Positions 2,564-46,945 of a stretch of 64,000 nt of DNA are shown piece by piece (positions within the stretch are counted from its first letter, which is position 1; each line of letters begins with the position of its first letter). This DNA comes from Dehalococcoidia bacterium (GTDB lineage: Bacteria; Chloroflexota; Dehalococcoidia; Bin125): assembly GCA_963663895.2 (NCBI GenBank), contig CAXXRD010000001.1, positions 544,001 through 608,000 on the forward strand, in the 5' to 3' direction. The translations under genes and the position numbers were made by a program. The notes beneath the pieces were generated by a model, which was not told the DNA's origin, did not search any database, and worked only from the letters and a program-made list of their open reading frames with translations.

Positions 2564-3549
2564 CGCGCCATCTCCTTGGCGTGATACGTGAGGATCAGGT
2601 CCGCACCGGCGCGCTTGATCGCGGTCAGCACTTCCGGCACGACACGATTCTCCTCCAACCATCCGTTGGCCGCAGCCGCTTTCACCATCGCGTATTCGCC
2701 GCTGACGTTATAGGCGGCGATCGGACAATCCATGCGATCACGCGCTTGGCGGATCAGATCCAGGTACGGGAGCGCGGGCTTCACCATCACCATATCCGCG
2801 CCCTCGGCAAGGTCTTGCGCGATCTCGCTCAGCGCCTCCCGCCCGTTGGGCGGGTCCATCTGGTAGCTCCGGCGATCGCCGAAGGCCGGCGTCGAGTCCG
2901 CCGCCTCGCGAAAAGGACCGTAGAAGGCCGAAGCGAACTTGGCGGCGTAGGCCAAGATCGCGACATCCGGCAAGCCCGCACCGTCGAGAGCGCCGCGGAT
3001 CGCTCCCACACGGCCGTCCATCATGTCGCTGGGCGCCACGATGTCCGCCCCCGCCTCCGCCTGGCTCAGTGCCGTGGCGGCGATCAGCTCCACGGAGGCG
3101 TCGTTCTCGACCACGCCGCCCGCGCCCAGCACGCCGCAGTGGCCGTGATCGGTGTACTCGCAGAGACAGACATCCGTCATCACGACCAGGTCGGGATCGG
3201 CGTCCTTTAGCACCCGGACGGCCTGCTGCACGATACCGTCCGCGGCGTACGCTTCGGACGCCCGCGCATCCTTGCGAGCCGGAAGCCCGAAGAGGATGAG
3301 CGCGGGAATTCCGAGCGCTCGCAACTCGCGCGCCTCCTCCGGCAGTTGGTCGATCGAGAGGCGGCTCTGTCCCGGCATCGACGCAATGGGGGCGCGCACA
3401 TCGCGGCCGTGCGTCACGAAGAGCGGATATACGAAGTCGTCCGCCGCCAGCCGCGTCTCCCGGACCATCCGTCGCATCGTCTCGCTCCGGCGGATGCGGC
3501 GGTGCCGGCGCGGAAGTGCGAGCCGTGTTGCGCGGTTCGTGTCAAGCAT
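2539..3549 (-). CDS. hemB: Porphobilinogen synthase
   Basis: [14 protein letters not shown] zinc site, [31 protein letters not shown]. Confidence 0.97.
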
Positions 3550-5086
3550 GGGATGTCACTTTACCGAATGCATCCTTGAGCGCCTTCACCAAGCCAGGGA
3601 TCGTATGCTCCTCGCTGACTACATCCACGCGCAAGCCTAACTCGCGCGCCCTGGCGGCCGTGACGGGACCGATACAGGCCACGAACGGCTGCTCCAGCAG
3701 CTCCGTTCTCCCGTCCAACAGCTCGACACACCCTTGCACCGTCGACGAAGCGGTAAAGGTCGCGATGTCGATCTCCCCCGCCTCGAGCCGCGCGATGACG
3801 GCCGAATCGGCCGTGGCAGGTCGACGCGCGACGTAGAACACCACATCGTCGACGGTCGCGCCACGGCGGCGGAGCCCCTGGGGGAGGACCGTTCGCGCTC
3901 CGTCAGCCCGAGCGAGCAGCATCCGCGCCCCTTCCAAGGGATGATCGGCGAGGGCCAAAAGCAACTCCTCGGCCACGTACCGGGCCGGCACCACGTCCGC
4001 ACGAATCCCCCGGCGGGCTAGCGCCCCGGCGGTCGCCTGGCCGATCGCGGCGACCTGGACACCGCCCAAGGCGCGGCTGTCATGTCCTGCCCGATCGAGC
4101 GCGGCGAACAGCTGATCAACGCCATTGGCGCTCGTGAGGATGGCCCAGTCGTAGCGGCCCGCGGCCAGATCGGCGACGGCGGCGGCCGTGGCGGCGCTGG
4201 GCCGTGCCTCAATCTCGATAGCGGGGAATTCGATCGGCTCGGCGCCTTCCCGGACGAGGCATCGCGCCATCTCGCTCACCTGCGTCCGTGTGCGGGTGAT
4301 GAGAACCCGCTTGCCGAAGAGGGGTCGTTGGTCGAACCAGCGCAGCTTCGCCCGTAACGAAACCACCTGCCCCACGATGAGGACGGCGGGGGCGGCGAGG
4401 CCCGCTGCATCGGCCGCGGCGGGGAGTCGTGCCAGGGGCGCTTCCACGACCCGCTGCTGCGGCGTGGTCCCGCGCTCCACGAGCGCGGCCGGCGTGTTGG
4501 CCGGGCGGCCGTGCTCGATCAGCCGCTCGCACACCGCAGCGAGCGTCCGCCTCGCCATGAGGCAAGCGATGGTGTCGGGCCCGCGCGCGATCGCTTCCCA
4601 ATCGATGGCGCTGTCGACCTTCAACGCATCTTCGTGGCCGGTGACGACCACGAAAGACGATGCGAGATCGCGATGGGTCACCGGAATCCCAGCATAGGCA
4701 GGCGCTGCAACCGCCGAGCCCACGCCGGGGACCACTTCAAAGGGAACTCCGGCTGCCGCCAGCGCTTCCGCCTCCTCGCCGCCGCGTCCGAAGACGAACG
4801 GATCGCCGCCTTTGAGGCGCACCACAGCCTTCCCGGCGCGGGCGCCGTCGATCAACGACCGTGCGATCTCGGCCTGCGGCATCGCCTGCGCGCCGGCTTC
4901 CTTGCCGACGAAAACGCGCTCCGCTTCGGGACGGACTTCCTGCAGCAGCGCGGGATTAATCAAGCGGTCGTAGACAACGAGATCGGCCCGGCGAAGCCGC
5001 TCCCGTCCCAGCAGCGTCAGCAAGCCCGGGTCGCCGGGACCGGCGCCGACGAGACTCACCAAGCCGGCCGCGTCGCCGCGCGTCAC
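3542..5086 (-). CDS. cobA: Fused uroporphyrinogen-III C-methyltransferase / uroporphyrinogen-III synthase (CobA-HemD)
   Basis: N-terminal [12 protein letters not shown] and [16 protein letters not shown]; C-terminal HemD-type [28 protein letters not shown]. Confidence 0.93.
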
Positions 5087-16988: not shown

Positions 16989-17513
16989 TCATTCCAGGAG
17001 ATACCCAACCGCGACGACGTTGCGGCCGCTCTGCCCGCTCCCCTCGACGATGACGACGGTCGCTCCGGAATCCGCCGTCCCGACGTCCAAGGTCGCAAAG
17101 CCATCGGCCTCGGTGCGCACCCGCTCGCCCGGCAGGCCCAGCGCGTCGAAGGCCGCCTCGTAAAAGTCGAGGACCGTCCCCGCATCGTCGTCCGTCTCCC
17201 AAAACACGAGGAACTGCGGGCGGCCTTCCTCTTCAACCGCCGCGCTCTGGGTGAGGACGCCGCGCGGGTAGACCAGCTCCGGCGGAAAGCCCTCTCCTGG
17301 GGTCTCTCCGGCCGTGAAGCTCGTCCGTCTCTCCGGCCCCTCAATGGAGAAGTCCTCGCCCTCGACCCGCAGAACCGCCTCTCCTTCTTCGCCCTCCAGG
17401 ACGAGGGAGCGGTCGCCTCCAGCCTCTCCGGCGCCGCCGTTGCCGCAAGCGGCCAGCAGCGCGACCGCGGCCAGCGGCACGAGCAACCGAACGAACCGCA
17501 ACGGACGATCCAT
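16989..17513 (-). CDS. Hypothetical lipoprotein
   Basis: Signal peptide with lipobox LLAAC; acidic mature region. Confidence 0.7.
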   Translation of the reverse strand: MDRPLRFVRLLVPLAAVALLAACGNGGAGEAGGDRSLVLEGEEGEAVLRVEGEDFSIEGPERRTSFTAGETPGEGFPPELVYPRGVLTQSAAVEEEGRPQFLVFWETDDDAGTVLDFYEAAFDALGLPGERVRTEADGFATLDVGTADSGATVVIVEGSGQSGRNVVAVGYLLE

Positions 17514-17643
17514 CGCTCTCCTTCCGTCCGCAACTCCCGCCGGGAAACGTCCGGCGACGCGCCTGCGCAACGGCGCGGCGCGCTGACGACCTCCCGTCAC
17601 TGCTATTCTCTACCACGCCTTGCGGACTCGAAGGAGGCCCACC

Positions 17644-18725: not shown

Positions 18726-18801
18726 GGGCCCTTAGCTCAGCTGGAAGAGCAGCGGACTTTTAATCCGAAGGCCCAGGGTTCGAGTCCCTGAGGGCCCACC
18801 A
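18726..18801 (+). tRNA. tRNA-Lys(UUU)
   Basis: GGGCCCT acceptor arm, TAGCTCAG D-arm, CGGA-CTTTTAA-TCCG anticodon arm, GGTTCGAGTCC T-loop, encoded CCA; 76 nt. Confidence 0.97.
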
Positions 18802-18912
18802 CACCGGCGAAAGAGAAGGGTCAAATCTCAACGTGACCGACCCTCTGTCGTCGGACGTCATGCGAACCTGGAATTGACTCATCGGTCTAGGCAACTCGAT
18901 GAGAGACGCGGC

Positions 18913-20388
18913 ATGAACCCTGTTCCCAAAGTCATGAGCACGCAGCACCCGGATAACGCAACGCCGGCGCCCTTCGCCGACGAGGCAGGAGTGTTGAAGG
19001 GGGAAGGGGAAGTCGCTGAGGCCGCAAGCGTCTTCGCCCTGGGTTGTGACGAGCAGATGTGGGACTCCGAAGGCAAGGAGGCCGACACCCAGGTCGTCCG
19101 GAAACTTCTCACCAGTCACCCAGACTTATTTCGCAATCAGTTTCAGCTTGGTCGAGACGTAGCCCTGACGCTGCGCGTGCCCAATCCGCGTATCGAGCAC
19201 GACATGCGCAAGTCGATGGTCGAGGCCTTACAGAGTGTGCCTTCGGCGTGGGACATGGCGCATGGCTTCTACAGCGATGACCACGCCGACCCTATCCAGG
19301 AGGTCATCCTTCCGTTCACCACCTCTGCGGAAGAGCTCTCTTTGGTCGAGGCCTACTATCAAAAAGTGATCGTAGGCCATGAAGACCAGGTGTTGATCCA
19401 AGGGCAGACCGTCAGGGACTGGGTGGGGGAGTTTTTCCCAAAACGCGTGCGCGTCATTCCCCTCATCGAGGACATGGAGAGCCTACTCCATTGCGACCGG
19501 ATCGTGGAGGAGTACGTGGGGCCCAGAGACCTGCCCTACCAGCGGGTATTCCTTGCGCGAAGCGATCCGGCGCTCAACTACGGCATCATCGGCGCGGAGT
19601 TGGTGCTGAAAGTGGGGTTGCTACGTCTTCACAATCTGGAAGACCAGCTCGGACTGCCCCTCTACCCTGTCATCGGCGCCGGCTCCGTCCCCTTTAGGGG
19701 CCACCTGACTCCGCTCAACATCGAGCGGGCCCACATCGAGTACCCAACCGCCCAGACCCTCACCGTCCAATCGGCCTTCAAGTACGACTACAACACAGAG
19801 GTGGTCCGCAACGGCATCTCGCAGATTCGCGCGCGCGAGCGGGGCGAACCCGTGCCGGTCACGCGGGAGCGCGCCTGCGAGATCATCGACAAGACCACCG
19901 CCGAGTACCAGGCCAATGTGCAGAAGCTGATCGGGGCCATCAAGGCCGTGTCGCCTCACGTACCCAAGCGGCGCGAACGGAAGCTCCACGTCGGCCTCTT
20001 CGGTTACGGCCGCTCCCTGGGCGGAGTGGGCGGGGTGACGCTTCCCCGGGCAATCAGCTTCACCGCTTCCCTGTACTCCATCGGCATTCCGCCGGAACTG
20101 CTGGGCCTCGCTTCGTTGACGGAGCAGGACGTCCTCTACGTCAAGGATGTCTACCCGAGTCTGTTTGGAGACCTGCGTGCCGCCCTGCGCTTCGCCAATG
20201 AGCGCCGTGTCAGGGAGTTGCTTGGCGAACCGTACTCGGCTGTCCTGAGTCGATTCGCAGGCGAGCTTGACCAGGTCCACGAGGGCCTGACCAGCGCCAT
20301 CTGGGCAAGCGTCGGCCAAGACGGCCCAACAGGACATATCACCCACTTCATCGAAGAGGCCGCCCACCTGCGCCGCTTCCTGGGCTAA
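18913..20388 (+). CDS. ppcA: Archaeal-type phosphoenolpyruvate carboxylase
   Basis: About 490 aa; MSTQHPDN, QMWDSEGK, FLARSDPALNYG, GSVPFRG, TVQSAFKYD, GYGR...LPRAISF, R-x-FLG C-terminus. Confidence 0.93.
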   Translation: MNPVPKVMSTQHPDNATPAPFADEAGVLKGEGEVAEAASVFALGCDEQMWDSEGKEADTQVVRKLLTSHPDLFRNQFQLGRDVALTLRVPNPRIEHDMRKSMVEALQSVPSAWDMAHGFYSDDHADPIQEVILPFTTSAEELSLVEAYYQKVIVGHEDQVLIQGQTVRDWVGEFFPKRVRVIPLIEDMESLLHCDRIVEEYVGPRDLPYQRVFLARSDPALNYGIIGAELVLKVGLLRLHNLEDQLGLPLYPVIGAGSVPFRGHLTPLNIERAHIEYPTAQTLTVQSAFKYDYNTEVVRNGISQIRARERGEPVPVTRERACEIIDKTTAEYQANVQKLIGAIKAVSPHVPKRRERKLHVGLFGYGRSLGGVGGVTLPRAISFTASLYSIGIPPELLGLASLTEQDVLYVKDVYPSLFGDLRAALRFANERRVRELLGEPYSAVLSRFAGELDQVHEGLTSAIWASVGQDGPTGHITHFIEEAAHLRRFLG

Positions 20389-25055: not shown

Positions 25056-26420
25056 TCAGCGCGCCTCGACGAACAGGGTGTAGGTACCGAGGTCGTAGCC
25101 CCAGACATCAATGTAGTGGTCGCCGGAGTAGTCGGCCAGCCAGTAGATGCGCGAGGCGAAGGTGTCCGCATAGTCGTCGCTGAAGGCCAGTTGCCGCCAC
25201 TCCGCGTCGTAGAGCGTGAGCACGGAGTCACCCAACGTGACGAGTCCGATGTCGATCTCGTAGAGGACGCCCTGCTCCGCCTCGAAGACGAAGTAGTCGG
25301 AGTCGTGATCCGAGCCCAACTCCCCCGACGCCTGCACTCCGACGGCGATCACGGTGGCGCCGTCGGGGAAGTCGGCGTGGTCGTCGGGGCCGTCGCCGCT
25401 CGCGGCGCTCGCCGCGTCCGTGAACTGGGACAGGACGGGCAGGCAGACCAGCAGGCCCGTGTAGAAACGTTCGGCCCCCGGGCTGTCCTCGCCGACCAGA
25501 TCGGACGCCTCGGTCTCATCCAGCAGTCGACGCAGGCACGCCTCCGCCTCGGGGTCGATCTCCGGTCCGCCGCCGCCGAAGCTGGCCAGCAGCGACGGCG
25601 AGCAGCGGAACAGACCAAAGGTCAGCTCCACCAGTGGCGCGTCGTCGCCCGCGTCCATCGCGTCCAGCAGCGCGATCACGTCCAGCTCGCGGGCCCACTC
25701 TCGGATGCAGGCGCGTTCGGGCTCACTGACCGCGTCGCTGTCCACGCCAATCTCCGCCGCGACCGACTCGAACAGCAACTCGGGCAGGCAGCGCCAGATG
25801 CCGGCGAGGAAGGCGTTGCCCTCCGGGCCGTCGTCCTCCCTGGCCGCCACCACGGTGGCGGGATCGACCCCGGCCAGAACCTCGCGCAGGCAAGCCATTT
25901 CCGCTGCGCCGGCCTCCATCCCCTCCTCCTCCATGCCCGCGAGCAACGAGCCGAGCAGCAGGTCGCGGCCGGTCTCCGGGGCGAGGCAAGCGAACAAGTC
26001 CGTTTCCCAGGCCGGGGTCGTTTCTTCGCGCAAGACCTCGCGCGCAAGCAGCGCCGCCGCCTCGTCGCCGAACTGGTCGCGGATGCAGGCCTGCTCCGAA
26101 GCCGTCAGCGTCTCGAACACATCCTGCCAGGACGTGCTGCGATCGAGAGTCAGCGCCCACTCCGCCGATTCGTCTGCGTCCTGCGGCGCGTCGCCGGCGG
26201 AGGGTTCGGCCTGCTCATCGTTCGCCGTTGATGCCGCCGCGTTGCGCTGCTCGGTCCGCGATTCGGCGGTCTCCGGCTCATCCGCCGCCGTGGTCGTCTC
26301 CGCAGCCGGCCCGACGGCGTCGGGCGCCGGATCGCCGCCCGAGCAGCCGGCCAGCGTGGCGACCGCGACGAGCGCAAGCGTCAGTGATATCAGCCAGTGG
26401 CGCAGGATCGCATTCACCAC
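25056..26420 (-). CDS. Lipoprotein with repeated Cys-paired helical units and a C-terminal PPC-like domain
   Basis: Lipobox LAGC; four E-x-AC(I/L)R...C(L/S) units; DDHAD...DSDYFVFEA...GTYTL domain. Confidence 0.75.
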   Translation of the reverse strand: MVNAILRHWLISLTLALVAVATLAGCSGGDPAPDAVGPAAETTTAADEPETAESRTEQRNAAASTANDEQAEPSAGDAPQDADESAEWALTLDRSTSWQDVFETLTASEQACIRDQFGDEAAALLAREVLREETTPAWETDLFACLAPETGRDLLLGSLLAGMEEEGMEAGAAEMACLREVLAGVDPATVVAAREDDGPEGNAFLAGIWRCLPELLFESVAAEIGVDSDAVSEPERACIREWARELDVIALLDAMDAGDDAPLVELTFGLFRCSPSLLASFGGGGPEIDPEAEACLRRLLDETEASDLVGEDSPGAERFYTGLLVCLPVLSQFTDAASAASGDGPDDHADFPDGATVIAVGVQASGELGSDHDSDYFVFEAEQGVLYEIDIGLVTLGDSVLTLYDAEWRQLAFSDDYADTFASRIYWLADYSGDHYIDVWGYDLGTYTLFVEAR

Positions 26421-26553: not shown

Positions 26554-28311
26554 TTACTCTTCCTCGTAGTAGGCGCTGGAGAATACATACCCGTCGTGGC
26601 GAATGATCCAGAGATTCACCACCAAATTCCCCGATGCTCTCGGATTGGGCCACTCGTACTGGAACCAGTGGCCTTCCTCCGTCGCGCCGAGCATCTCTTC
26701 GCCTATCGGCTCTCCGGCCAAAATCCCCCTGAACGCGCCGGCCGCCTGGCCAACCAGTTCGGGCGCCACGGCGGAGGCAACGATATCGCCCTCGGGACCG
26801 ACGATCATCAGCCAGTACGAGCCATCTATGCTCTCTTGGCTGTTGTAGTAGGCCAGCGTCGCCTCCACGCCCTCCCGTTCGTAGTATGCGATCGCCTTTT
26901 GCACGTAGCCTTTCGCGTAGGCTGCGGGATCATCAACGGCCGGATAGTAGCCCGACGCGAAGATCAGCCCGTCGCGGCGCACCGCGTAGCCCACCTTGGG
27001 AACTTCCTGCAGCGTCACCGGGTGCGGCCAGAGGTACTCCACCCAGACGCCTTCGCCGCCATCCTCGGCCGCGGCCAGCGCCTTGCCCAGCTCGTAGCCG
27101 TCCGACCCCACCACCTCCTTGATGTCCGTCCCGATCAGCCGGGGCAGCAGGGGATGGACGTGGTAGATGTCGTTCGCGTCGGTGGCGAAGAGGTACCACT
27201 CGCCCTCGAAGCTGGCGACGCTGTTGTAGTAGTTGCGCATGGACTCCAGACCGTCGCGCTCGTACCGCTCAATGGCCCGCTCCACGTACTGCACGGTGTA
27301 CTCCCGTGGATCGGCGTCCTGCCAGGGGGGGGAATCCACCTTGGACCCGCCGGCATAGTAGCCCGACGCGAAGATCAGCCCGTCGTGGCGGACGGCCCAG
27401 GTGATCTTCGGCTGCTCCTTCCGGGTGACCGGATGGGGCCACAGATACTCCACCCAGACGCCCTCCTCGGTGGCCCGGGCGATCTCCTTGCCCAGCTCCT
27501 GCCCGTCGGACCCCACCACCTCCTTGATATCCGTCCCGATCAGGTGCGGGAAGACGGGATGGACCAGGTAGTGGTCGTCGGCCCCGATCAGGAACAGGTA
27601 GAACTGACCCTCCAGGCTGTCCGGGCTGTTGTAGTGGGCGATGACGGCGTCGAGGCCGTCCGCGTTGTACTTGGCGATGGCCTTGTTCACGTACTCCTTG
27701 GTGGGCTCCGCCAAGTTCTCCTGCAGGACGGAGTGGCTGGATATGAAAAGCCAGCCGTCGTAAAGGATGAAGTAGGTGCGGAGATCATCCTCTCTGACCA
27801 CGACGCCAGCGTCCGTCAGGGTAGGATGGATCTCCCGATGCTCCAGCCAATCGCCGGCCTCGGTCGCTCTTTCCAAGAAATGGCCAGCATATTCGTACTT
27901 CTGGCCCAGAATAATGTCCTGATAAAACGGGATCGCTATCGCCGTGCCGTCATCCCCGTCGAGGATGATCAAGTACCGTTCCCCCTCGATGCTCTCCTCA
28001 CTGCTGTAGTAGGCGACGGTGGCATCCAGCCCGTCCCGCTTGTACCGCTCTACCGCCTCCTCCACGTAGGCGCGGGTGAGGGCGTCGTCTTCGTTGACGG
28101 GCTCGGATTCCGGGGTCGGCGCCGGCGCCGGCTCAGCAGGCTCGGGCGCCGGAGTTGCCGCCGGCGCAGGCTCGGCGGGGTCGGCCACAGGGGTCGGCGG
28201 CGGGTCATCGCCGCAGGCCACACTGAACGTCGCCACAGAAACCAAGGCAAGCGCCAATATCAGCAGGGCCGCGCCCGCCGACCGCCGCGCAACCCGTCTC
28301 GTCTGCAACAT
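26554..28311 (-). CDS. Lipoprotein with four tandem single-Cache-like domains and no output domain
   Basis: Lipobox SVAC, Pro/Ala linker, four units of YVxxAxxxY...G...YNS...YLF...G(V/H)W(V/F)EYxWP...(H/R)DGxxFxS. Confidence 0.82.
   Translation of the reverse strand: MLQTRRVARRSAGAALLILALALVSVATFSVACGDDPPPTPVADPAEPAPAATPAPEPAEPAPAPTPESEPVNEDDALTRAYVEEAVERYKRDGLDATVAYYSSEESIEGERYLIILDGDDGTAIAIPFYQDIILGQKYEYAGHFLERATEAGDWLEHREIHPTLTDAGVVVREDDLRTYFILYDGWLFISSHSVLQENLAEPTKEYVNKAIAKYNADGLDAVIAHYNSPDSLEGQFYLFLIGADDHYLVHPVFPHLIGTDIKEVVGSDGQELGKEIARATEEGVWVEYLWPHPVTRKEQPKITWAVRHDGLIFASGYYAGGSKVDSPPWQDADPREYTVQYVERAIERYERDGLESMRNYYNSVASFEGEWYLFATDANDIYHVHPLLPRLIGTDIKEVVGSDGYELGKALAAAEDGGEGVWVEYLWPHPVTLQEVPKVGYAVRRDGLIFASGYYPAVDDPAAYAKGYVQKAIAYYEREGVEATLAYYNSQESIDGSYWLMIVGPEGDIVASAVAPELVGQAAGAFRGILAGEPIGEEMLGATEEGHWFQYEWPNPRASGNLVVNLWIIRHDGYVFSSAYYEEE
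26945..27715. repeat. Near-identical direct repeat of about 770 bp (partner 28795-29565) encoding Cache domains 2-3
   Basis: Colinear at a constant 1850-bp offset at both ends; long identical stretches seen by eye. Confidence 0.92.
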
Positions 28312-28373
28312 GTCGTTTCCCTCTCCCTGCCTGGCGGCTTAGGCAGCCGTTCCTCGCCCTAACTTATCTACGC

Positions 28374-30335
28374 CTATCCGTCGCTCTGGGCCGAATCAGG
28401 AACGTCCGGCCGGTCGTCGTAGTAGCGTGAGGTGAAGAGCAGCCCGTCGTAGCGGATGGCCCAGGTATGCGCGTACAAGATCTCCGAGGACCGGACGTTG
28501 GGGAAGACGTTGCTGACCCAGAGGCCCTCCTCGGTGGCCGCCGCCATCTCCCTGCCAATCTGCCGGATGCGGCCCGCGCCAAGATCCTTCAAGTCGGTCC
28601 CTATGAGATGTTGAGCGAGCAGGGCGACGCGCACGATGTCGTTCTCATCGGCCAGGGTCAGGCTCCACTGGCCGTCAGCGCTCTCCTCACTGTTGTAATG
28701 GGCGATGGTGGCGTCCAGGCCGTTGGCCTGGTAGTACTCGACGGCCTGCTGTACATACGCCTGGGTCTGCGCCGCCGGGTCTTCCACGTGGACGTAGTAG
28801 CCGGAGGCGAAGAGCATCCCGTCGCGGCGCACCGCGTAGCCCACCTTGGGAACTTCCTTGAGCGTCACCGGATGCGGCCACAGGTACTCCACCCAGACGC
28901 CTTCGCCGCCATCCTCGGCCGCGGCCAGCGCCTTACCCAGCTCGTAGCCGTCCGACCCCACCACCTCCTTGATGTCCGTCCCGATCAGCTGGGGCAGCAG
29001 CGGATGGACATGGTAGATGTCGTTCGCGTCGGTGGCGAAGAGGTACCACTCGCCCTCGAAGCTGGCGACGCTGTTGTAGTAGTTGCGCATGGATTCCAGA
29101 CCGTCGCGCTCGTACCGCTCAATGGCCCGCTCCACGTACTGCACGGTGTACTCCCGCGGGTCGGCGTCCTGCCAAGGGGGGGCGCCCGCCTCGGGCGCGC
29201 CGACATAGTAGCCCGACGCGAAGATCAGCCCGTCGTGGCGGACGGCCCAGGTGACCTTCTGCTGCTCCTTCCGGGTGATCGGATGGGGCCACAGGTACTC
29301 CACCCAGACGCCCTCCTCGGTGGCCCGGGCGATCTCCTTGCCCAGCTCCTGCCCGTCGGACCCCACCACCTCCTTGATGTCCGTCCCAATCAGGTGCGGG
29401 AAGATGGGATGGGCCAGGTAGTGGTCGTCGGCCCCGATTAGGAACAGGTAGAACTGGCCCTCCAGGCTGTCCGAGCTGTTGTAGTGCGCGATGGTGGCGT
29501 CGAGGCCGTCCTCGTCGTATTTGGCGATGGCCTTGCGCACGTACTCCTTAGTGGACTCTCCCACGTCCTCCGTCAGGGCGGAATGGCTGGCGACGAACAC
29601 CAGGCCGTCATGAAGGACGCCAAAGACCCGTCGCGGCTCCTCCTGCTTGGTGACCGGGTTGATGCCCCGGGTCGTAACCCAGCGGCCTTCTTCGGTGGCG
29701 ACGGCTGTCAACCCCCCCAAAGCGGGGAACCTCGAGCCGGGGCCGACGTACTGGCCCTCCAGGCTGCGAAGGGCGTGGTACACCAGCAATACGCTTTCTT
29801 CAGCGTCCAGGATGATCAGCGGGCGCCCGTCGGCGACGCCGGTCGCGCTCCGGTAGTAGGCGACCGTGGCCGCCCGCCCATTGGCTTTGTAGTAGTCGAT
29901 GACGTCCATCACGTAAGCGTGGGTGAGTATCTCGTCCGCGTTGTTCAGGCCATGGATCGCGGTTAGCGACTGCCACGCGCCCCAGGAAGTGGCGGCGGGG
30001 GCTTGCCGGCTCTCGCTGCCCACGCTGAACCAGTAGGCGTCGTCCTTGATGAGACTCTCGGCTGGTACGACGTGCGTGGCGCCGGCCGGGACGGCGGCGT
30101 AGTGCAGCGCCGCGGTCCAGTCGCCGGCGTCTCTGGCCGCCTGGTATTCGTCGTCGTTCATCCACGCCACCCAGTGGGCGGCGGCATCATTCTGGTCCCA
30201 GCTGACGAGGACGCCTTCCTCGGTGCTGACCAGCGTCACCCCGCTGGGCGCCGCTGGCGAGTGCGCGGCGGCGGCGAAGCCGACGAAGCAGAGGGCGATG
30301 AGGGCGGGGGCGCTGAGAGCCACAAAGCGTTTCAC
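28374..30335 (-). CDS. Secreted protein: beta-rich (FN3-like) N-terminal module plus four tandem Cache-like domains
   Basis: Signal peptide; PAAPSGV...VSW...YWFSVG module; four Cache units paralogous to 26554-28311. Confidence 0.82.
   Translation of the reverse strand: MKRFVALSAPALIALCFVGFAAAAHSPAAPSGVTLVSTEEGVLVSWDQNDAAAHWVAWMNDDEYQAARDAGDWTAALHYAAVPAGATHVVPAESLIKDDAYWFSVGSESRQAPAATSWGAWQSLTAIHGLNNADEILTHAYVMDVIDYYKANGRAATVAYYRSATGVADGRPLIILDAEESVLLVYHALRSLEGQYVGPGSRFPALGGLTAVATEEGRWVTTRGINPVTKQEEPRRVFGVLHDGLVFVASHSALTEDVGESTKEYVRKAIAKYDEDGLDATIAHYNSSDSLEGQFYLFLIGADDHYLAHPIFPHLIGTDIKEVVGSDGQELGKEIARATEEGVWVEYLWPHPITRKEQQKVTWAVRHDGLIFASGYYVGAPEAGAPPWQDADPREYTVQYVERAIERYERDGLESMRNYYNSVASFEGEWYLFATDANDIYHVHPLLPQLIGTDIKEVVGSDGYELGKALAAAEDGGEGVWVEYLWPHPVTLKEVPKVGYAVRRDGMLFASGYYVHVEDPAAQTQAYVQQAVEYYQANGLDATIAHYNSEESADGQWSLTLADENDIVRVALLAQHLIGTDLKDLGAGRIRQIGREMAAATEEGLWVSNVFPNVRSSEILYAHTWAIRYDGLLFTSRYYDDRPDVPDSAQSDG
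29946..30335. repeat. 390-bp inverted repeat (partner 32566-32955): shared signal peptide plus FN3-like module
   Basis: Both genes encode EGVLVSWDQNDAA.HWVAWMNDDEYQAA.DAGDWT.AL...YWF.VGSESRQ.PAATSWGAWQS.TAIHGL, colinear; the ribosome-binding regions are also similar. Confidence 0.9.
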
Positions 30336-32565: not shown

Positions 32566-34674
32566 GTGAAACATCTGCTTGCCCTGGCCGCTCCCGTTCT
32601 CATCGCCCTCTGCTTCGTCGGCCTGGTGTCGGCGCAAGCCCCGCCGGCGGCCCCGACCGGCGTCATGGTGCACAGCGCCGGCGAGGGCGTCCTCGTCAGC
32701 TGGGACCAGAACGATGCCGCCGTCCACTGGGTGGCGTGGATGAACGACGACGAATACCAGGCGGCAAAAGACGCCGGCGACTGGACCACGGCGCTGCGCT
32801 ACGCCTCCGTCCCGGCCGGCGACACGCACGTCGTCCCCGCCGCGCGTCTCATCAAAGACGCGGACTACTGGTTCGCCGTGGGCAGCGAGAGCCGACAAAC
32901 CCCCGCCGCCACTTCCTGGGGCGCGTGGCAGTCGGTGACCGCGATCCACGGCCTGGACGGGGACGCAGACATCGTCGACCAGCTCCGCGAGAACGCGGAG
33001 GCGTTCGAGTACGCCATCGGACAGCCGGGCGGGACGCTGACGCGGGCGACGATCGGCGAGCCGCTGACCCTGAACCTGGCCATCGCCAACGACGCCTCTT
33101 CGTCGGGCATCCTCAGCTTTCTGTTCGAAGGGCTGACCGAGACCTCTTGGCTGACGGACCGGGTCGAGCCCGCGCTGGCGGAGTCCTGGGAGCGCTCGGA
33201 TGACGGGCTGACCTGGACCTTCCACCTGCGCAGAGACGTCACCTGGCACGACGGGCAGGGCTTCACGGCCCAGGACGTGGACTTCACCTTCAACCGGATC
33301 ATCTACAACGACGAGATCCCGGCCAGCAGCCGGCCGACGTTCACCTTCCGCTTCCCGGACGAGGAGAGCGGCGGCTGGCGGGAAGCGCCGATGACCGTCA
33401 CGGCGCTGGACGCGTACACGGTCCAGTTCGTTCTGCCGGTTCCTTTCGCGCCGTTCCTGCGCTCCATGGGCACCGCTATCTACCCCAGGCACATCCTGGA
33501 GCCGCACGTGGACGACGGCACGTTCGCCTCGACCTGGGACATCGACACGGACCCCGCCGCCGTGATCGGCACGGGTCCCTTCACCATTGAGCGCTGGGAC
33601 CGCGGCGAACGCCTGGTCCTGCAGCGCAACCCGAGCTACTGGCTCCGGGACGAGGCGGGCAACCGCCTGCCCTACCTGGACCGGGTGATCTACGAGATCG
33701 TGGCGGATACCGAGGTCACGCGCGCCCGGTTCCAGGCAGGCGCGACGGACGTGCACAGCATGCGCGGCGAGGAGTTCGCGATCTTCGAGCCGCTGCAGGA
33801 GGAGGGCAACTTCACGATCCACCGGCGCGGTCCCGCCTTCGGGACGACGTTCCTGGCGTTCAACATGAACCCCGGCAGCGATCCCGAGAGCGGCGAGCCG
33901 TACCTCGCGGCGGAGAAGCTGGAGTGGTTCCGGAACCCGCAGTTCCGCCGGGCCGTCGCGCACAGCGTCGACAAGGCAGCGATCATCCGGGGGGTCCAGG
34001 ACGGACTCGGCTACCCGCAATGGTCCTCCGTCAGCCCGGCCGCGGGCGACTTCCACAACCCCGACGTCCGCCGCTACGCGTACGACATCGACGAGGCCAA
34101 CGCGATCCTCGACGGCCTCGGTTGGGTGGACAGCGATGGGGACGGGATCCGCGAAGACGGCGCCGGCAACCCGATCGAGTTCTCGCTGGTGACCAACAGC
34201 GACAACACCGTGCGCGAAAAGGTCACGCTGCGGTTGCAGGAGGGACTCGCTCAGATCGGCGTCCAGGCGAACTATATACCGGTCGAGTTCGGCGTTCTCG
34301 TCTCCCAGCTGACGGCATCCTACGACTGGGAGACAATGGTGATCGGCTTCACCGGGGGATCGGACCCGTACGGCGGCATCGGGTTCTGGCACAGCAGCGA
34401 GCCTCTGCATCTGTGGCACCCGAATCAGTCTCAGCCCGCGACGGAATGGGAAGCCGAGATCGACGATCTCTACGTCAGGGCCGCCCAGGAGTTGGACCGT
34501 GACAGGCGGGTGGCGCTCTACCACCGCGCCCAGGAGATCGCCGCCGAGCATGTGCCGGTCATTTACACGACGCTCCCCGAGCGGCTGAGCGCGGTCCGAA
34601 ACGTCTTCGGCAACACGACGCCTACGTTGTACGGGCTCTGGGACATCCGCTACCTGTACCGAACGGACCGCTGA
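32566..34674 (+). CDS. Family-5 ABC substrate-binding protein with an N-terminal FN3-like module
   Basis: EPALAESWERSDDGLTWTFHLR...WHDG...DVDFTF, GTGPF, NPSYW...PYLD; no permease genes adjacent. Confidence 0.88.
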   Translation: MKHLLALAAPVLIALCFVGLVSAQAPPAAPTGVMVHSAGEGVLVSWDQNDAAVHWVAWMNDDEYQAAKDAGDWTTALRYASVPAGDTHVVPAARLIKDADYWFAVGSESRQTPAATSWGAWQSVTAIHGLDGDADIVDQLRENAEAFEYAIGQPGGTLTRATIGEPLTLNLAIANDASSSGILSFLFEGLTETSWLTDRVEPALAESWERSDDGLTWTFHLRRDVTWHDGQGFTAQDVDFTFNRIIYNDEIPASSRPTFTFRFPDEESGGWREAPMTVTALDAYTVQFVLPVPFAPFLRSMGTAIYPRHILEPHVDDGTFASTWDIDTDPAAVIGTGPFTIERWDRGERLVLQRNPSYWLRDEAGNRLPYLDRVIYEIVADTEVTRARFQAGATDVHSMRGEEFAIFEPLQEEGNFTIHRRGPAFGTTFLAFNMNPGSDPESGEPYLAAEKLEWFRNPQFRRAVAHSVDKAAIIRGVQDGLGYPQWSSVSPAAGDFHNPDVRRYAYDIDEANAILDGLGWVDSDGDGIREDGAGNPIEFSLVTNSDNTVREKVTLRLQEGLAQIGVQANYIPVEFGVLVSQLTASYDWETMVIGFTGGSDPYGGIGFWHSSEPLHLWHPNQSQPATEWEAEIDDLYVRAAQELDRDRRVALYHRAQEIAAEHVPVIYTTLPERLSAVRNVFGNTTPTLYGLWDIRYLYRTDR

Positions 34675-44519: not shown

Positions 44520-44801
44520 TCAGGAAAGCCATGGGGGATTATATACGTGAGTATTCACACTGGAAGGCCACCAGGGGCAGTTCCAGCTCTTCGCAGATGC
44601 GGAAGGCGACATCGTAGGAGGAGCAGAAGAGGTCCGCCTCCGTATCAATGGAAATCCGTCCACCGTGTCACCAGCGAGGCGTCCACCCACACGGTCGCCG
44701 GCCTCGAGCAGGATCAGGGAGAAGCCCTGCTCTTGGAGGGCGTAGGCGGCGCTCAGCCCGGCGGCTCCTCCGTCAACCACGACGACCCCTCTCTCACTCA
44801 C
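44520..44801 (-). pseudogene. N-terminal fragment of an FAD-dependent amine-oxidase/protoporphyrinogen-oxidase-like protein
   Basis: VVVVDGGAAGLSAAYAL...LEAGDRVGGR...VDGF; the first Gly of GxGxxG is replaced by Asp, and similarity is lost after about 50 aa. Confidence 0.65.
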
Positions 44802-45102: not shown

Positions 45103-45684
45103 TCAGCCAACCGCGGTGGCCAGCTCAAGGAGCTTTCTTACCGTTCTCCAGTTTCGAGCCGTGCCGGTAGTCGAGAGGCTGGAGTCGAAGTAGCTGTTCG
45201 TGAGCTTGCTGCGGGCAACCCCGTTCGGACAGTGGAGAAAGACCTCGCGACCCAATACCACGAACTCGTCGCCTGGTGAGCGATTCGGGTCCAATACTTC
45301 AACGTGCGCAGGGTCGGGTAGGTCTGCCAGGAAGAGGACAAGCAGCTTGCCCGCTTCGGCTCCAGCTTCCGCGAAGGGGTTAGCCTGCACGATCTCCTGG
45401 AGTTCCCGGGCTGTGCGGGTGACCACTGGAACACGATAGCCGAAGCGACTCAAGATCGACGTACTGATCAGAGATGGGATATCTTCTGCCAAAGCTGGTT
45501 CTGCACGAAAGAGCACGTTCCCACTCTGGATGTAGGTCTGAACGTCGTCGCACCCCGCGTCCCGGAACATTGCGGCGAGATCCTTCATCGGCAGTTTGTT
45601 CTTCCCACCGACGTTGATCCCGCGAAGCAATGCGACGTTTGCGCCTGTCGCGCTGCGCACGCTGTCAACGGACATGTTGGGCAT
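45103..45684 (-). CDS. DUF1697-family protein
   Basis: VALLRGINVGG, TYIQSGNV, NPF, TARNWRTV. Confidence 0.88.
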   Translation of the reverse strand: MPNMSVDSVRSATGANVALLRGINVGGKNKLPMKDLAAMFRDAGCDDVQTYIQSGNVLFRAEPALAEDIPSLISTSILSRFGYRVPVVTRTARELQEIVQANPFAEAGAEAGKLLVLFLADLPDPAHVEVLDPNRSPGDEFVVLGREVFLHCPNGVARSKLTNSYFDSSLSTTGTARNWRTVRKLLELATAVG

Positions 45685-46200
45685 GTTCCTTCCCGGTTCC
45701 GGAGACCCCTCGACTACTCCGGCGCGTCCTCGCCAGCGAGTAGCCGTTCCGTGGACGTGAAGGGGACGGCGGCCAGGCACATGGCGTCGGGATGGCATTC
45801 TAACCAGACGCTTGAGTCGTGCGGAAAGAGTATGGGCGTAGGGCGCACGCAGCCAAATTCCTCGGGGGCAGGATAGCTTAGTGGGCTGCTGTGCTATGAG
45901 CGGCGAAGAGGTTTCGGCGTCCCATTCGGTTACTGGTCCCACGTTGGGGCCATCTGCAGCCGACCTGATCAGGAAGAGGCAACAGGAGGCGCTTGGACTC
46001 AATCTGGCAGGCTTCAGAACACGACGGGCCACGTGAAAGTTCGGAGTACAGTACGCGAGGTCCGACTAGGATCGTCACGAGGACTGCACCTCCGCAGCGA
46101 GCGGAAACGGATTGCTTCGGTCCGATCCCAGGCACTGCCGCAGCAGTAACGGGCTCCCCTTCAATCCTCTCCACCGCATCCCTGCCGGCAGGCGGAGGCT

Positions 46201-46815
46201 CTAGTTTCTCGCTTGCGCCGCGAGCGCGCGGAGAAGGGCGAGGAACTCTTCGGCTGTCGAGAGGGGGACGCGTACGCCGTTCACCAGCACGAAGGGGGTC
46301 GAAGCGATGCCCAAGCGGCGCGCCTCCTCGACCCCCGCCATCAGGGCATCCTGATGGGTCCGCGAGTCCAGGCAGTCCGAGAACCGATCCAGGTCCAAGC
46401 CGGCGGCTCGCGCAGCGCCGTCCAGCTCCGCGCTCGACAGCCCCTGCGCCTGCCGCTCGAAGAGCGCATCGTGGTACGGGAAGAAGGCGTCTTGATCGGC
46501 CGCGCACTCGGCGGCGAGCGCCGCCGCCTCGCTCGCCGGGCCCAGGTGCGGGAAATGCCGGAAGGTGAAGCGGGCGATCCCCGTCTGCACGAACTCATCC
46601 TCAAAGGGCGGCTCAAACTGAGTCGCGAACACCCGGCAGCCGGGTCACTGGAAATCGCCCCAGTGCACCACGTGGAGCGGCGCCTCCGCGAACCCGAGCG
46701 TGTTGCGCTCGGTTGGGATAGCGGCCGGCGCCTCGCTCTCGGTCCCGCCATTGCATGCCGCCGCCAGCAGGCAGGCCAGCAGCAGCGCCCCCAAAGCCAG
46801 CCGTCGTCGCCCCAC
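46201..46815 (-). CDS. DsbA/thioredoxin-fold lipoprotein with an in-frame TGA at the first Cys of CxxC (probable selenoprotein, UPGC)
   Basis: GGGAGGA-GTG start; lipobox LAAAC; LGFAEAPLHVVHWGDFQ-TGA(46647-46645)-PGC; then FRHFP, AAECAADQ and GIASTP (cis-Pro) in the same frame. Confidence 0.85.
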
Positions 46816-46945
46816 CGTTTCCTCCCGCTCACCCGCACCCTACCATCACCACCGCGGCCGCCGCCTCGATCGGCGGCCGGCGCGCCGGCGGACGCTGCTA
46901 GCATCAGGGCCTGAAGGCAGCGCCAGCAGGCAGAACGGTCGGAAG

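Follow-up and report, generated by a model that had tools for sequence, protein, structure and literature searches.

A candidate DsbA-fold selenoprotein with a U-P-G-C active site in a Dehalococcoidia bacterium

Introduction

Does the in-frame TGA of a minus-strand gene in a Dehalococcoidia bacterium end a short peptide, or is it read as selenocysteine (Sec) in the active site of a longer thiol oxidoreductase? The question is raised by a locus in the window, which is the whole 64-kb stretch of DNA analysed here. Selenoproteins with a UxxC motif in this kind of protein are known from predictions. The DsbG-like and DsbA-like ones are already present in family tables of papers from 2005, 2006 and 2026 (PMC1088965, PMC1794560, PMC13188914), and in one of these 'DsbA-like' (COG2761) and 'DsbG-like' (COG1651) are separate UxxC rows (PMC1088965). 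The 2026 review ties 'DsbG-like' to NF041057, the Rcas_1661 family thioredoxin-like (seleno)lipoprotein, and describes such selenoproteins as largely uncharacterised (PMC13188914). No experimental study of such a DsbA-fold selenoprotein was found in the open-access literature. In BSepDB, two Dehalococcoidia rank within the top ten bacteria by richness in selenoproteins (PMC13326102). An earlier note on this DNA had proposed an exported UxxC thiol oxidoreductase, and the position of the stop in relatives, the pairing of Cys and TGA in homologs and the predicted fold all support that proposal. On this comparative evidence, the gene is very probably a true selenoprotein gene in which UGA57 would be read as Sec.

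Results

Gene organization and reading frame

The frame extends on the minus strand from a GTG at 46815-46813 to a TAG at 46203-46201 and is interrupted by a single stop, the TGA, which lies in the context W-G-D-F-Q-[TGA]-P-G-C of the translation. The features of the locus are given in Table 1. The Shine-Dalgarno-like sequence which the earlier note had placed before the GTG is present, and the 56-aa proteins P0211-P0213 are called from the same GTG start. GC3 is 0.86 on both sides of TGA57 and matches that of the neighbouring genes. The N-terminus shows a basic region, a hydrophobic region and the sequence L-A-A-A-C21 in this order, and the order is kept in all four N-terminal fragments found. 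The sequence at Cys21 resembles the lipobox that had been claimed for the protein, with Ala instead of the Leu, Val or Ile of the consensus at -3.

Table 1. Features of the candidate selenoprotein gene, in window coordinates
Feature	Position	Strand	Evidence
Whole gene, 204-aa DsbA-fold (Thioredoxin_4) lipoprotein-like selenoprotein candidate	46201..46815	-	Translation, Pfam, model, fold matches
In-frame TGA, codon 57, attacking position of U-P-G-C, predicted selenocysteine	46645..46647	-	Alignments, pairing
Shine-Dalgarno-like GGAGG, 5 nt upstream of GTG	46821..46825	-	Sequence
Predicted signal peptide at codons 1-20, with Cys21 as probable lipidation site	46753..46815	-	Sequence, pLDDT 51-64 at residues 1-30
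Cys60, resolving cysteine of UxxC, start of helix 58-76	46636..46638	-	Cys in 81/81 genomic matches
Cys104 (46506-46504) and Cys148 (46374-46372), helical insert, probable second structural disulfide	46372..46506	-	
Thr173-Pro174, read as cis-proline loop of DsbA-type enzymes	46294..46299	-	Pro in 81/81, Thr in 78/81 matches
6-bp hairpin directly after UGA, sequesters bases needed by the earlier proposed hairpin	46631..46645	-	Folding
Best SECIS candidate, +19..+37, 7 pairs and one mismatch, loop GUU 26 nt after UGA	46608..46626	-	-6.0 kcal/mol

The gene is isolated: a TPP-dependent dehydrogenase E1 operon runs divergently from it, and a DUF1697 gene lies downstream. No promoter or terminator consensus was found near it. 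In the DUF1697 gene (45103-46032, minus strand) the domain begins at residue 133 of the longest ORF, suggesting that its true start is probably near 45680. A search of the window for a second gene with TGA readthrough gave candidate lists of 9 and 14, among which by eye only the present gene appears to form a continuous protein.

Some other features of the window were also recorded. A 93-aa ORF at 44520-44801 (minus strand) resembles an amine oxidase-type protein over its FAD-binding beginning only and then diverges; from its sequence it is probably a gene remnant. In each of two adjacent exported proteins at 26554-30335 (minus strand), Cache domains are matched twice and no further domain is matched with confidence; part of the N-terminus of the second recurs in the solute-binding protein at 32566-34674. 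The tRNA-Lys at 18726-18801 (plus strand) is followed by a PEPcase_2 phosphoenolpyruvate carboxylase gene (18874-20388, plus strand), presumably of the archaeal type, whose GC at second and third positions is below that of its neighbours, and the sequence hints at a possible insertion site. Two lipoprotein-like ORFs of 454 and 203 aa, at 25056-26420 and 16989-17600 (both minus strand), have no Pfam match.

Position of the stop in close relatives

A protein search with the read-through sequence, in which 8000 candidates were scored, gave 58 matches. The top five are C-terminal fragments (129-143 aa, 79-97% identity), and each begins downstream of codon 57, while the best full-length match is merely 44% identical. 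The 56-aa N-terminal part used as query found four matches among 11 candidates, and all four end exactly at H-W-G-D-F-Q; as these relatives are known from proteins alone, TAA or TAG is conceivable in place of TGA. Among the four, P0211 is the window protein's own cluster, with 4 members and an identical 56-aa fragment on 9 contigs. The other three N-terminal clusters are 83-88% identical to P0211 and 78-80% among themselves, and one fragment with 88% identity is named 'hypothetical protein, Chloroflexi bacterium'. Gene callers thus split the gene as had been anticipated, and the public sets hold a 56-aa 'hypothetical protein' and a headless thioredoxin-domain piece.

A sequencing or assembly error in the window would have to recur in the identical fragment on 9 contigs and at the same residue of three clusters with 83-88% identity; nothing was found in its favour and its probability is practically negligible. 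The earlier note had proposed relatives as the test between a selenoprotein and an error or nonsense mutation, and the stop occupies the same codon position in 4 of 4 N-terminal fragments. Judged from these sequences, the stop very probably marks neither a sequencing error nor a pseudogene.

The public records themselves could be taken at face value, as two real genes, one for a 56-aa lipopeptide and the other for a 143-aa protein that starts from the GTG at 46632. This agrees with what the gene callers report, but that GTG has no Shine-Dalgarno-like sequence upstream, and the predicted starts of the downstream piece vary among relatives, at the equivalents of residues 61, 72 and 76. The division would also cut off strand 47-53 of the thioredoxin sheet from the remaining strands. 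Two separate genes are a highly improbable arrangement.

Two further headless DsbA-fold proteins of 133 aa, P0018 and P0020, show 43-48% identity and start after the active site. They probably represent another split Sec clade, as suggested by their sequences, and they group with a Cys form in a quick tree.

Cys/TGA pairing in genomic homologs

A scan of GTDB genomes gave at least 592 pattern matches, of which at least 370 were confirmed. The best 80 loci, with 30-45% identity and no close relative among them, were analysed and gave 81 matches over the site. At the equivalent of codon 57 these have TGC (51), TGT (18) or TGA (12) and nothing else, so the pairing of Cys and TGA in orthologs, which had been suggested as a check, is found as 69 Cys and 12 TGA. 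The TGA homologs are distant from the window protein, at 32-44% identity. The other three cysteine positions are never stops; besides Cys60 (Table 1), Cys104, which falls inside one of the two search seeds, is Cys in 81 of 81 matches and Cys148 in 80 of 81. One other stop, at a C-terminal end, was observed in the 13,751 aligned codons of the 81 matches. All 12 TGA loci are open on both sides, with 73-186 codons before and 142-347 codons after the TGA.

The 12 TGA genes are distributed over Chloroflexota (11) and Symbiobacteriaceae (one, L078), and five of them are near-copies. The Symbiobacteriaceae gene parallels the listing of Symbiobacterium thermophilum with a DsbG-like selenoprotein (PMC1794560). 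In the quick tree, TGA rows are scattered among Cys forms, and the window protein with its five split relatives forms a separate long-branched clade with support 100. The tree was used only for this clade and for the scatter of TGA because it is a quick one and its count of changes ignores Cys rows. A search of 50%-identity representatives was dominated by multi-domain proteins and was uninformative on Sec.

Two explanations of the TGA can be weighed by this distribution. In the first, UGA would be a general sense codon (Trp or Gly, tables 4/25) or would be read as Cys through some other recoding. Nothing was found in favour of it; the organism uses TGA as a normal stop, which ends 8 of the 23 window genes picked as confident, and the aligned residue is Cys or TGA in 81/81 matches and never Trp or Gly. 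Such a reading of UGA is very improbable. In the second, the TGA is a nonsense mutation, either in an inherited pseudogene or in a Sec gene stranded after the loss of the Sec machinery. A single substitution converts TGC or TGT to TGA, the window holds no Sec genes and the SECIS is weak. Against this, both halves are intact and conserved across clusters just 78-93% identical, the even GC3 extends across the TGA, and stops replace this Cys in 12 of the 81 homologs but never the other three Cys. We regard a nonsense mutation as improbable.

At three of the 12 TGA loci a heterodisulfide reductase A (HdrA) gene within 10 kb also carries a TGA, in a C-A-A-[TGA] context. As HdrA is a listed selenoprotein family (PMC1794560), the genomes of these three loci very likely recode UGA. 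The split HdrA genes are all on the minus strand (L057 19488, L068 15229, L069 19361). One locus, L070, encodes two DsbA domains in a single frame (3416-4942, plus strand); the leading domain bears the TGA (U-P-Y-C), and the trailing one has Cys (C-P-F-C). Upstream of this TGA by about 0.8 kb, at position 3066, another frame with S-P-T-[TGA]-G-C-C is a second selenoprotein candidate.

Sec machinery

The 51 ORFs of the window that were scanned include no selA, selB or selD, and no tRNA-Sec was found in the 64-kb window, its sole tRNA being the tRNA-Lys. Similarly, no tRNA-Sec was found in the 12 TGA loci and no sel gene among the 85 of 126 flanking ORFs of these loci that were scanned.

Fold and structural relatives

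When codon 57 is taken as Cys, Thioredoxin_4 of Pfam (PF13462) matches residues 39-195 and spans the TGA (E 7.7e-31). The score is 108 bits against a gathering threshold of 23.2 and covers model positions 7-163 of 165. Pfam DSBA (PF01323) matches residues 99-184 (E 2e-11). The AlphaFold2 model, made from a 36-row alignment with C for U, has a mean pLDDT of 89.8, with 164 residues above 90. It composes a confident domain from about residue 38, preceded by a low-confidence N-terminal anchor and linker (residues 22-37), and shows a thioredoxin fold with a helical insert, in which position 57 precedes helix 58-76. The model has no N-terminal dimerisation domain.

Foldseek analysis placed Corynebacterium diphtheriae TsdA, Bacillus subtilis BdbD and Wolbachia alpha-DsbA1 at the top, with TM 0.73-0.77. 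TsdA (4pwo, 7unn) and BdbD (3eu3) are the best matches in both sequence and fold (TM 0.74-0.77, rmsd about 2 A, 25-28% identity). Codon 57 had been assigned to the nucleophilic Cys, and the TGA indeed aligns with the first Cys of CxxC in 4pwo and 7unn. Like TsdA and BdbD, the window protein is predicted to be membrane-tethered and to have a CxxC-type motif at the start of a helix and a Thr-cis-Pro loop. Thr173-Pro174 was read as this loop because it matches the Thr-cis-Pro loop described for TsdA, T248-P249 (PMC9974433). The motif of the window protein, like that of TsdA, contains no His. Unlike the U-P-G-C of the window protein, TsdA and BdbD are Cys enzymes, with CPFC in TsdA.

Wolbachia alpha-DsbA1 (3f4r-3f4t; TM 0.73, 22-23% identity) is an alphaproteobacterial Cys enzyme with a second Cys pair, C97/C146, in its helical domain, and the entry 3f4t among the fold matches is its C97A/C146A variant. 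This pair was likened to Cys104/Cys148 by spacing alone, and Cys104-Cys148 is probably a second, structural disulfide.

Family placement

The label 'DsbA-like', given to the protein in the earlier note, holds for the DsbA-type fold, but the best curated model is that of the 'DsbG-like' proteins. NF041057 is the sole NCBIfam match (E 2.3e-33); its score of 115.8 bits is below the cut-off of 190, so the protein is not a member of this equivalog, and the match covers profile positions 82-231 of 247 only. Among the 10 of 12 TGA homologs scanned, all nine single-domain ones are also below the cut-off, at 125-177 bits, and the two-domain L070 alone passes it, by summing its domains. The window protein shares with the DsbG-like/NF041057 proteins the UxxC at the attacking Cys, the thioredoxin fold with helical insert and a predicted lipoprotein-type N-terminus, while it differs from them in its shorter N-terminal linker and its own long-branched clade. 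With the 'DsbA-like' form 1 (COG2761, PF01323) it has in common the UxxC motif and the DsbA-type fold, but PF13462 fits far better than PF01323, the placement being made by Pfam and NCBIfam models. By these profile matches the protein belongs to the broader DsbG-like/Thioredoxin_4 UxxC selenoproteins, a kind already known from predictions.

SECIS-like hairpins

The published bSECIS model has a loop of 3-9 nt with G in its first two positions, a stem of 4-16 bp, a distance of 16-37 nt between UGA and loop, and an energy of -7.5 kcal/mol or better (PMC13188914). A canonical SECIS is given for 87.4% of the BSepDB entries (PMC13326102).

The hairpin put forward in the earlier note can be drawn in the sequence, with -8.6 kcal/mol, but only 14 nt separate its loop from UGA, and the upper stem pairs with a probability of at most 0.01 in four context windows; it was rejected as a likely SECIS. 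As drawn, it has a probability of 0.04 in isolation. The best fold of the 34-nt piece has -10.3 kcal/mol, which is no better than chance (z = -0.15 against shuffles). In windows that include the UGA, its bases are taken by the 6-bp hairpin which directly follows the UGA. It is probably the wrong SECIS.

The best candidate, at +19..+37, agrees with the published geometry, and the distance of its loop from UGA is within the 19-30 nt of the TGA homologs. Its energy alone, calculated by ViennaRNA (Table 1), falls short of the published limit, while the 41-45 nt after UGA, including both hairpins, reach -16.9 kcal/mol. Its probability is 0.99 in a 45-nt window and 0.04-0.42 in longer windows, in which it competes with a longer hairpin that has no leading G. 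Among synonymous recodings of the window's 60 nt, 12 of 400 reach its score. Its formation requires ACT65 and TTT67, which are both rare (4% of Thr and 10% of Phe codons, respectively); the sole two TTT codons of the gene (67 and 71), among 15 Phe, fall in the hairpin region, and codons 64-72 are the least adapted stretch of the gene outside its first few codons.

Comparison between TGA and Cys loci revealed that, within the family, SECIS-like hairpins follow TGA more often than Cys. A loose hairpin test was positive in 11 of 12 TGA loci against 27 of 69 Cys loci (24 of 44 when GC-matched), and the window itself fails it. When a compact G-loop hairpin was required at -6 kcal/mol or better, a test and threshold chosen after the looser one, it was present in 12/12 TGA loci (8/8 with near-copies merged) against 11/50 GC-matched Cys loci, and at -7.5 the same test gave 5/8 merged TGA loci against 8/50. 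Consensus folding of nine post-UGA sequences found no shared RNA structure. In a fixed register taken from four homologs, 62% of cells are paired against 33-43% in slid controls, but the pairing does not exceed that of shuffles (95 of 500), nor does the covariation; the window hairpin is shifted by one codon from this register. From its position and geometry, the +19..+37 hairpin is a plausible SECIS of the window gene.

Genes beside the TGA homologs

The flanking ORFs were scanned at nine TGA loci, where a VKOR gene is beside one and a redoxin gene beside another, and no neighbourhood common to the family was found in these flanks. The VKOR gene is just downstream of the homolog at L078 (7016-7480). 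The TlpA-like redoxin gene is just downstream of that at L080 (3597-4154) and is followed by Lgt. Genes for SCO1 and cytochrome c oxidase subunits are just downstream of the homolog at L066 (11009-15796).

Discussion

The product of the locus is most probably one 204-aa Sec protein, exported and lipid-anchored with a DsbA-type domain, made by the standard bacterial Sec route. SelB and tRNA-Sec, with a stem-loop in the coding sequence which is most likely the +19..+37 hairpin, would read UGA57 as Sec. The protein would then be exported and anchored via lipidation at Cys21, presenting a monomeric DsbA-type domain outside the cytoplasmic membrane. In its active site Sec57 would attack, and Cys60 would resolve the intermediate through a selenenyl-sulfide. 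The enzyme is predicted to carry out thiol-disulfide exchange with exported proteins as substrates, and its most likely role is to form and reshuffle disulfides as TsdA and BdbD do. The membrane partner, of VKOR/DsbB or DsbD type, would be encoded elsewhere, and the 64-kb window has no match to DsbB, VKOR or DsbD.

The same selenoprotein may instead act mainly as a reductase or isomerase, or as a protector of exported cysteines like DsbG or ScsC, supplied by a DsbD/CcdA-type donor. This differs from the explanation above only in the direction of catalysis. Se-S pairs are more reducing than S-S pairs, and the lower potential that Sec would give to the active-site pair suggests a reductase or isomerase role. 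Isomerisation or repair is favoured by the lower potential of the Se pair, the motif without His and the redoxin beside L080, together with the SCO1 and cytochrome oxidase genes after L066. Selenocystine has about -488 mV against about -240 mV for small thiols (PMC11639659). TsdA, the closest structure, also has no His, and isomerase and reductase activity in vitro are reported for it (PMC9974433). Disulfide formation is favoured by the monomeric, TsdA/BdbD-like build and by the VKOR gene adjoining L078. The model lacks an N-terminal dimerisation domain and is closest in fold to TsdA and BdbD. In vivo, TsdA can substitute for the oxidase MdbA (PMC9974433). A mainly reducing or isomerising enzyme is a real possibility, to which we give less weight than to disulfide formation and reshuffling.

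Taking disulfide formation further, the clade might be a dedicated Sec-based disulfide-forming oxidase of the Chloroflexota envelope, with a selenenyl-sulfide donor reoxidised by a VKOR-type partner and with Cys and Sec forms interconverted several times. This is a speculative and rather unlikely extension.

For the annotation of the family, the locus represents a correctable gap because the clade is below the NF041057 cut-off and is split into two pieces in the public sets. The protein would offer a small, monomeric and exported test case for the role of selenium in the DsbA fold. If the clade is indeed a Sec-based disulfide-forming oxidase, selenium, to which a reducing role is usually ascribed, would do the reverse and drive oxidative protein folding in the Chloroflexota envelope.
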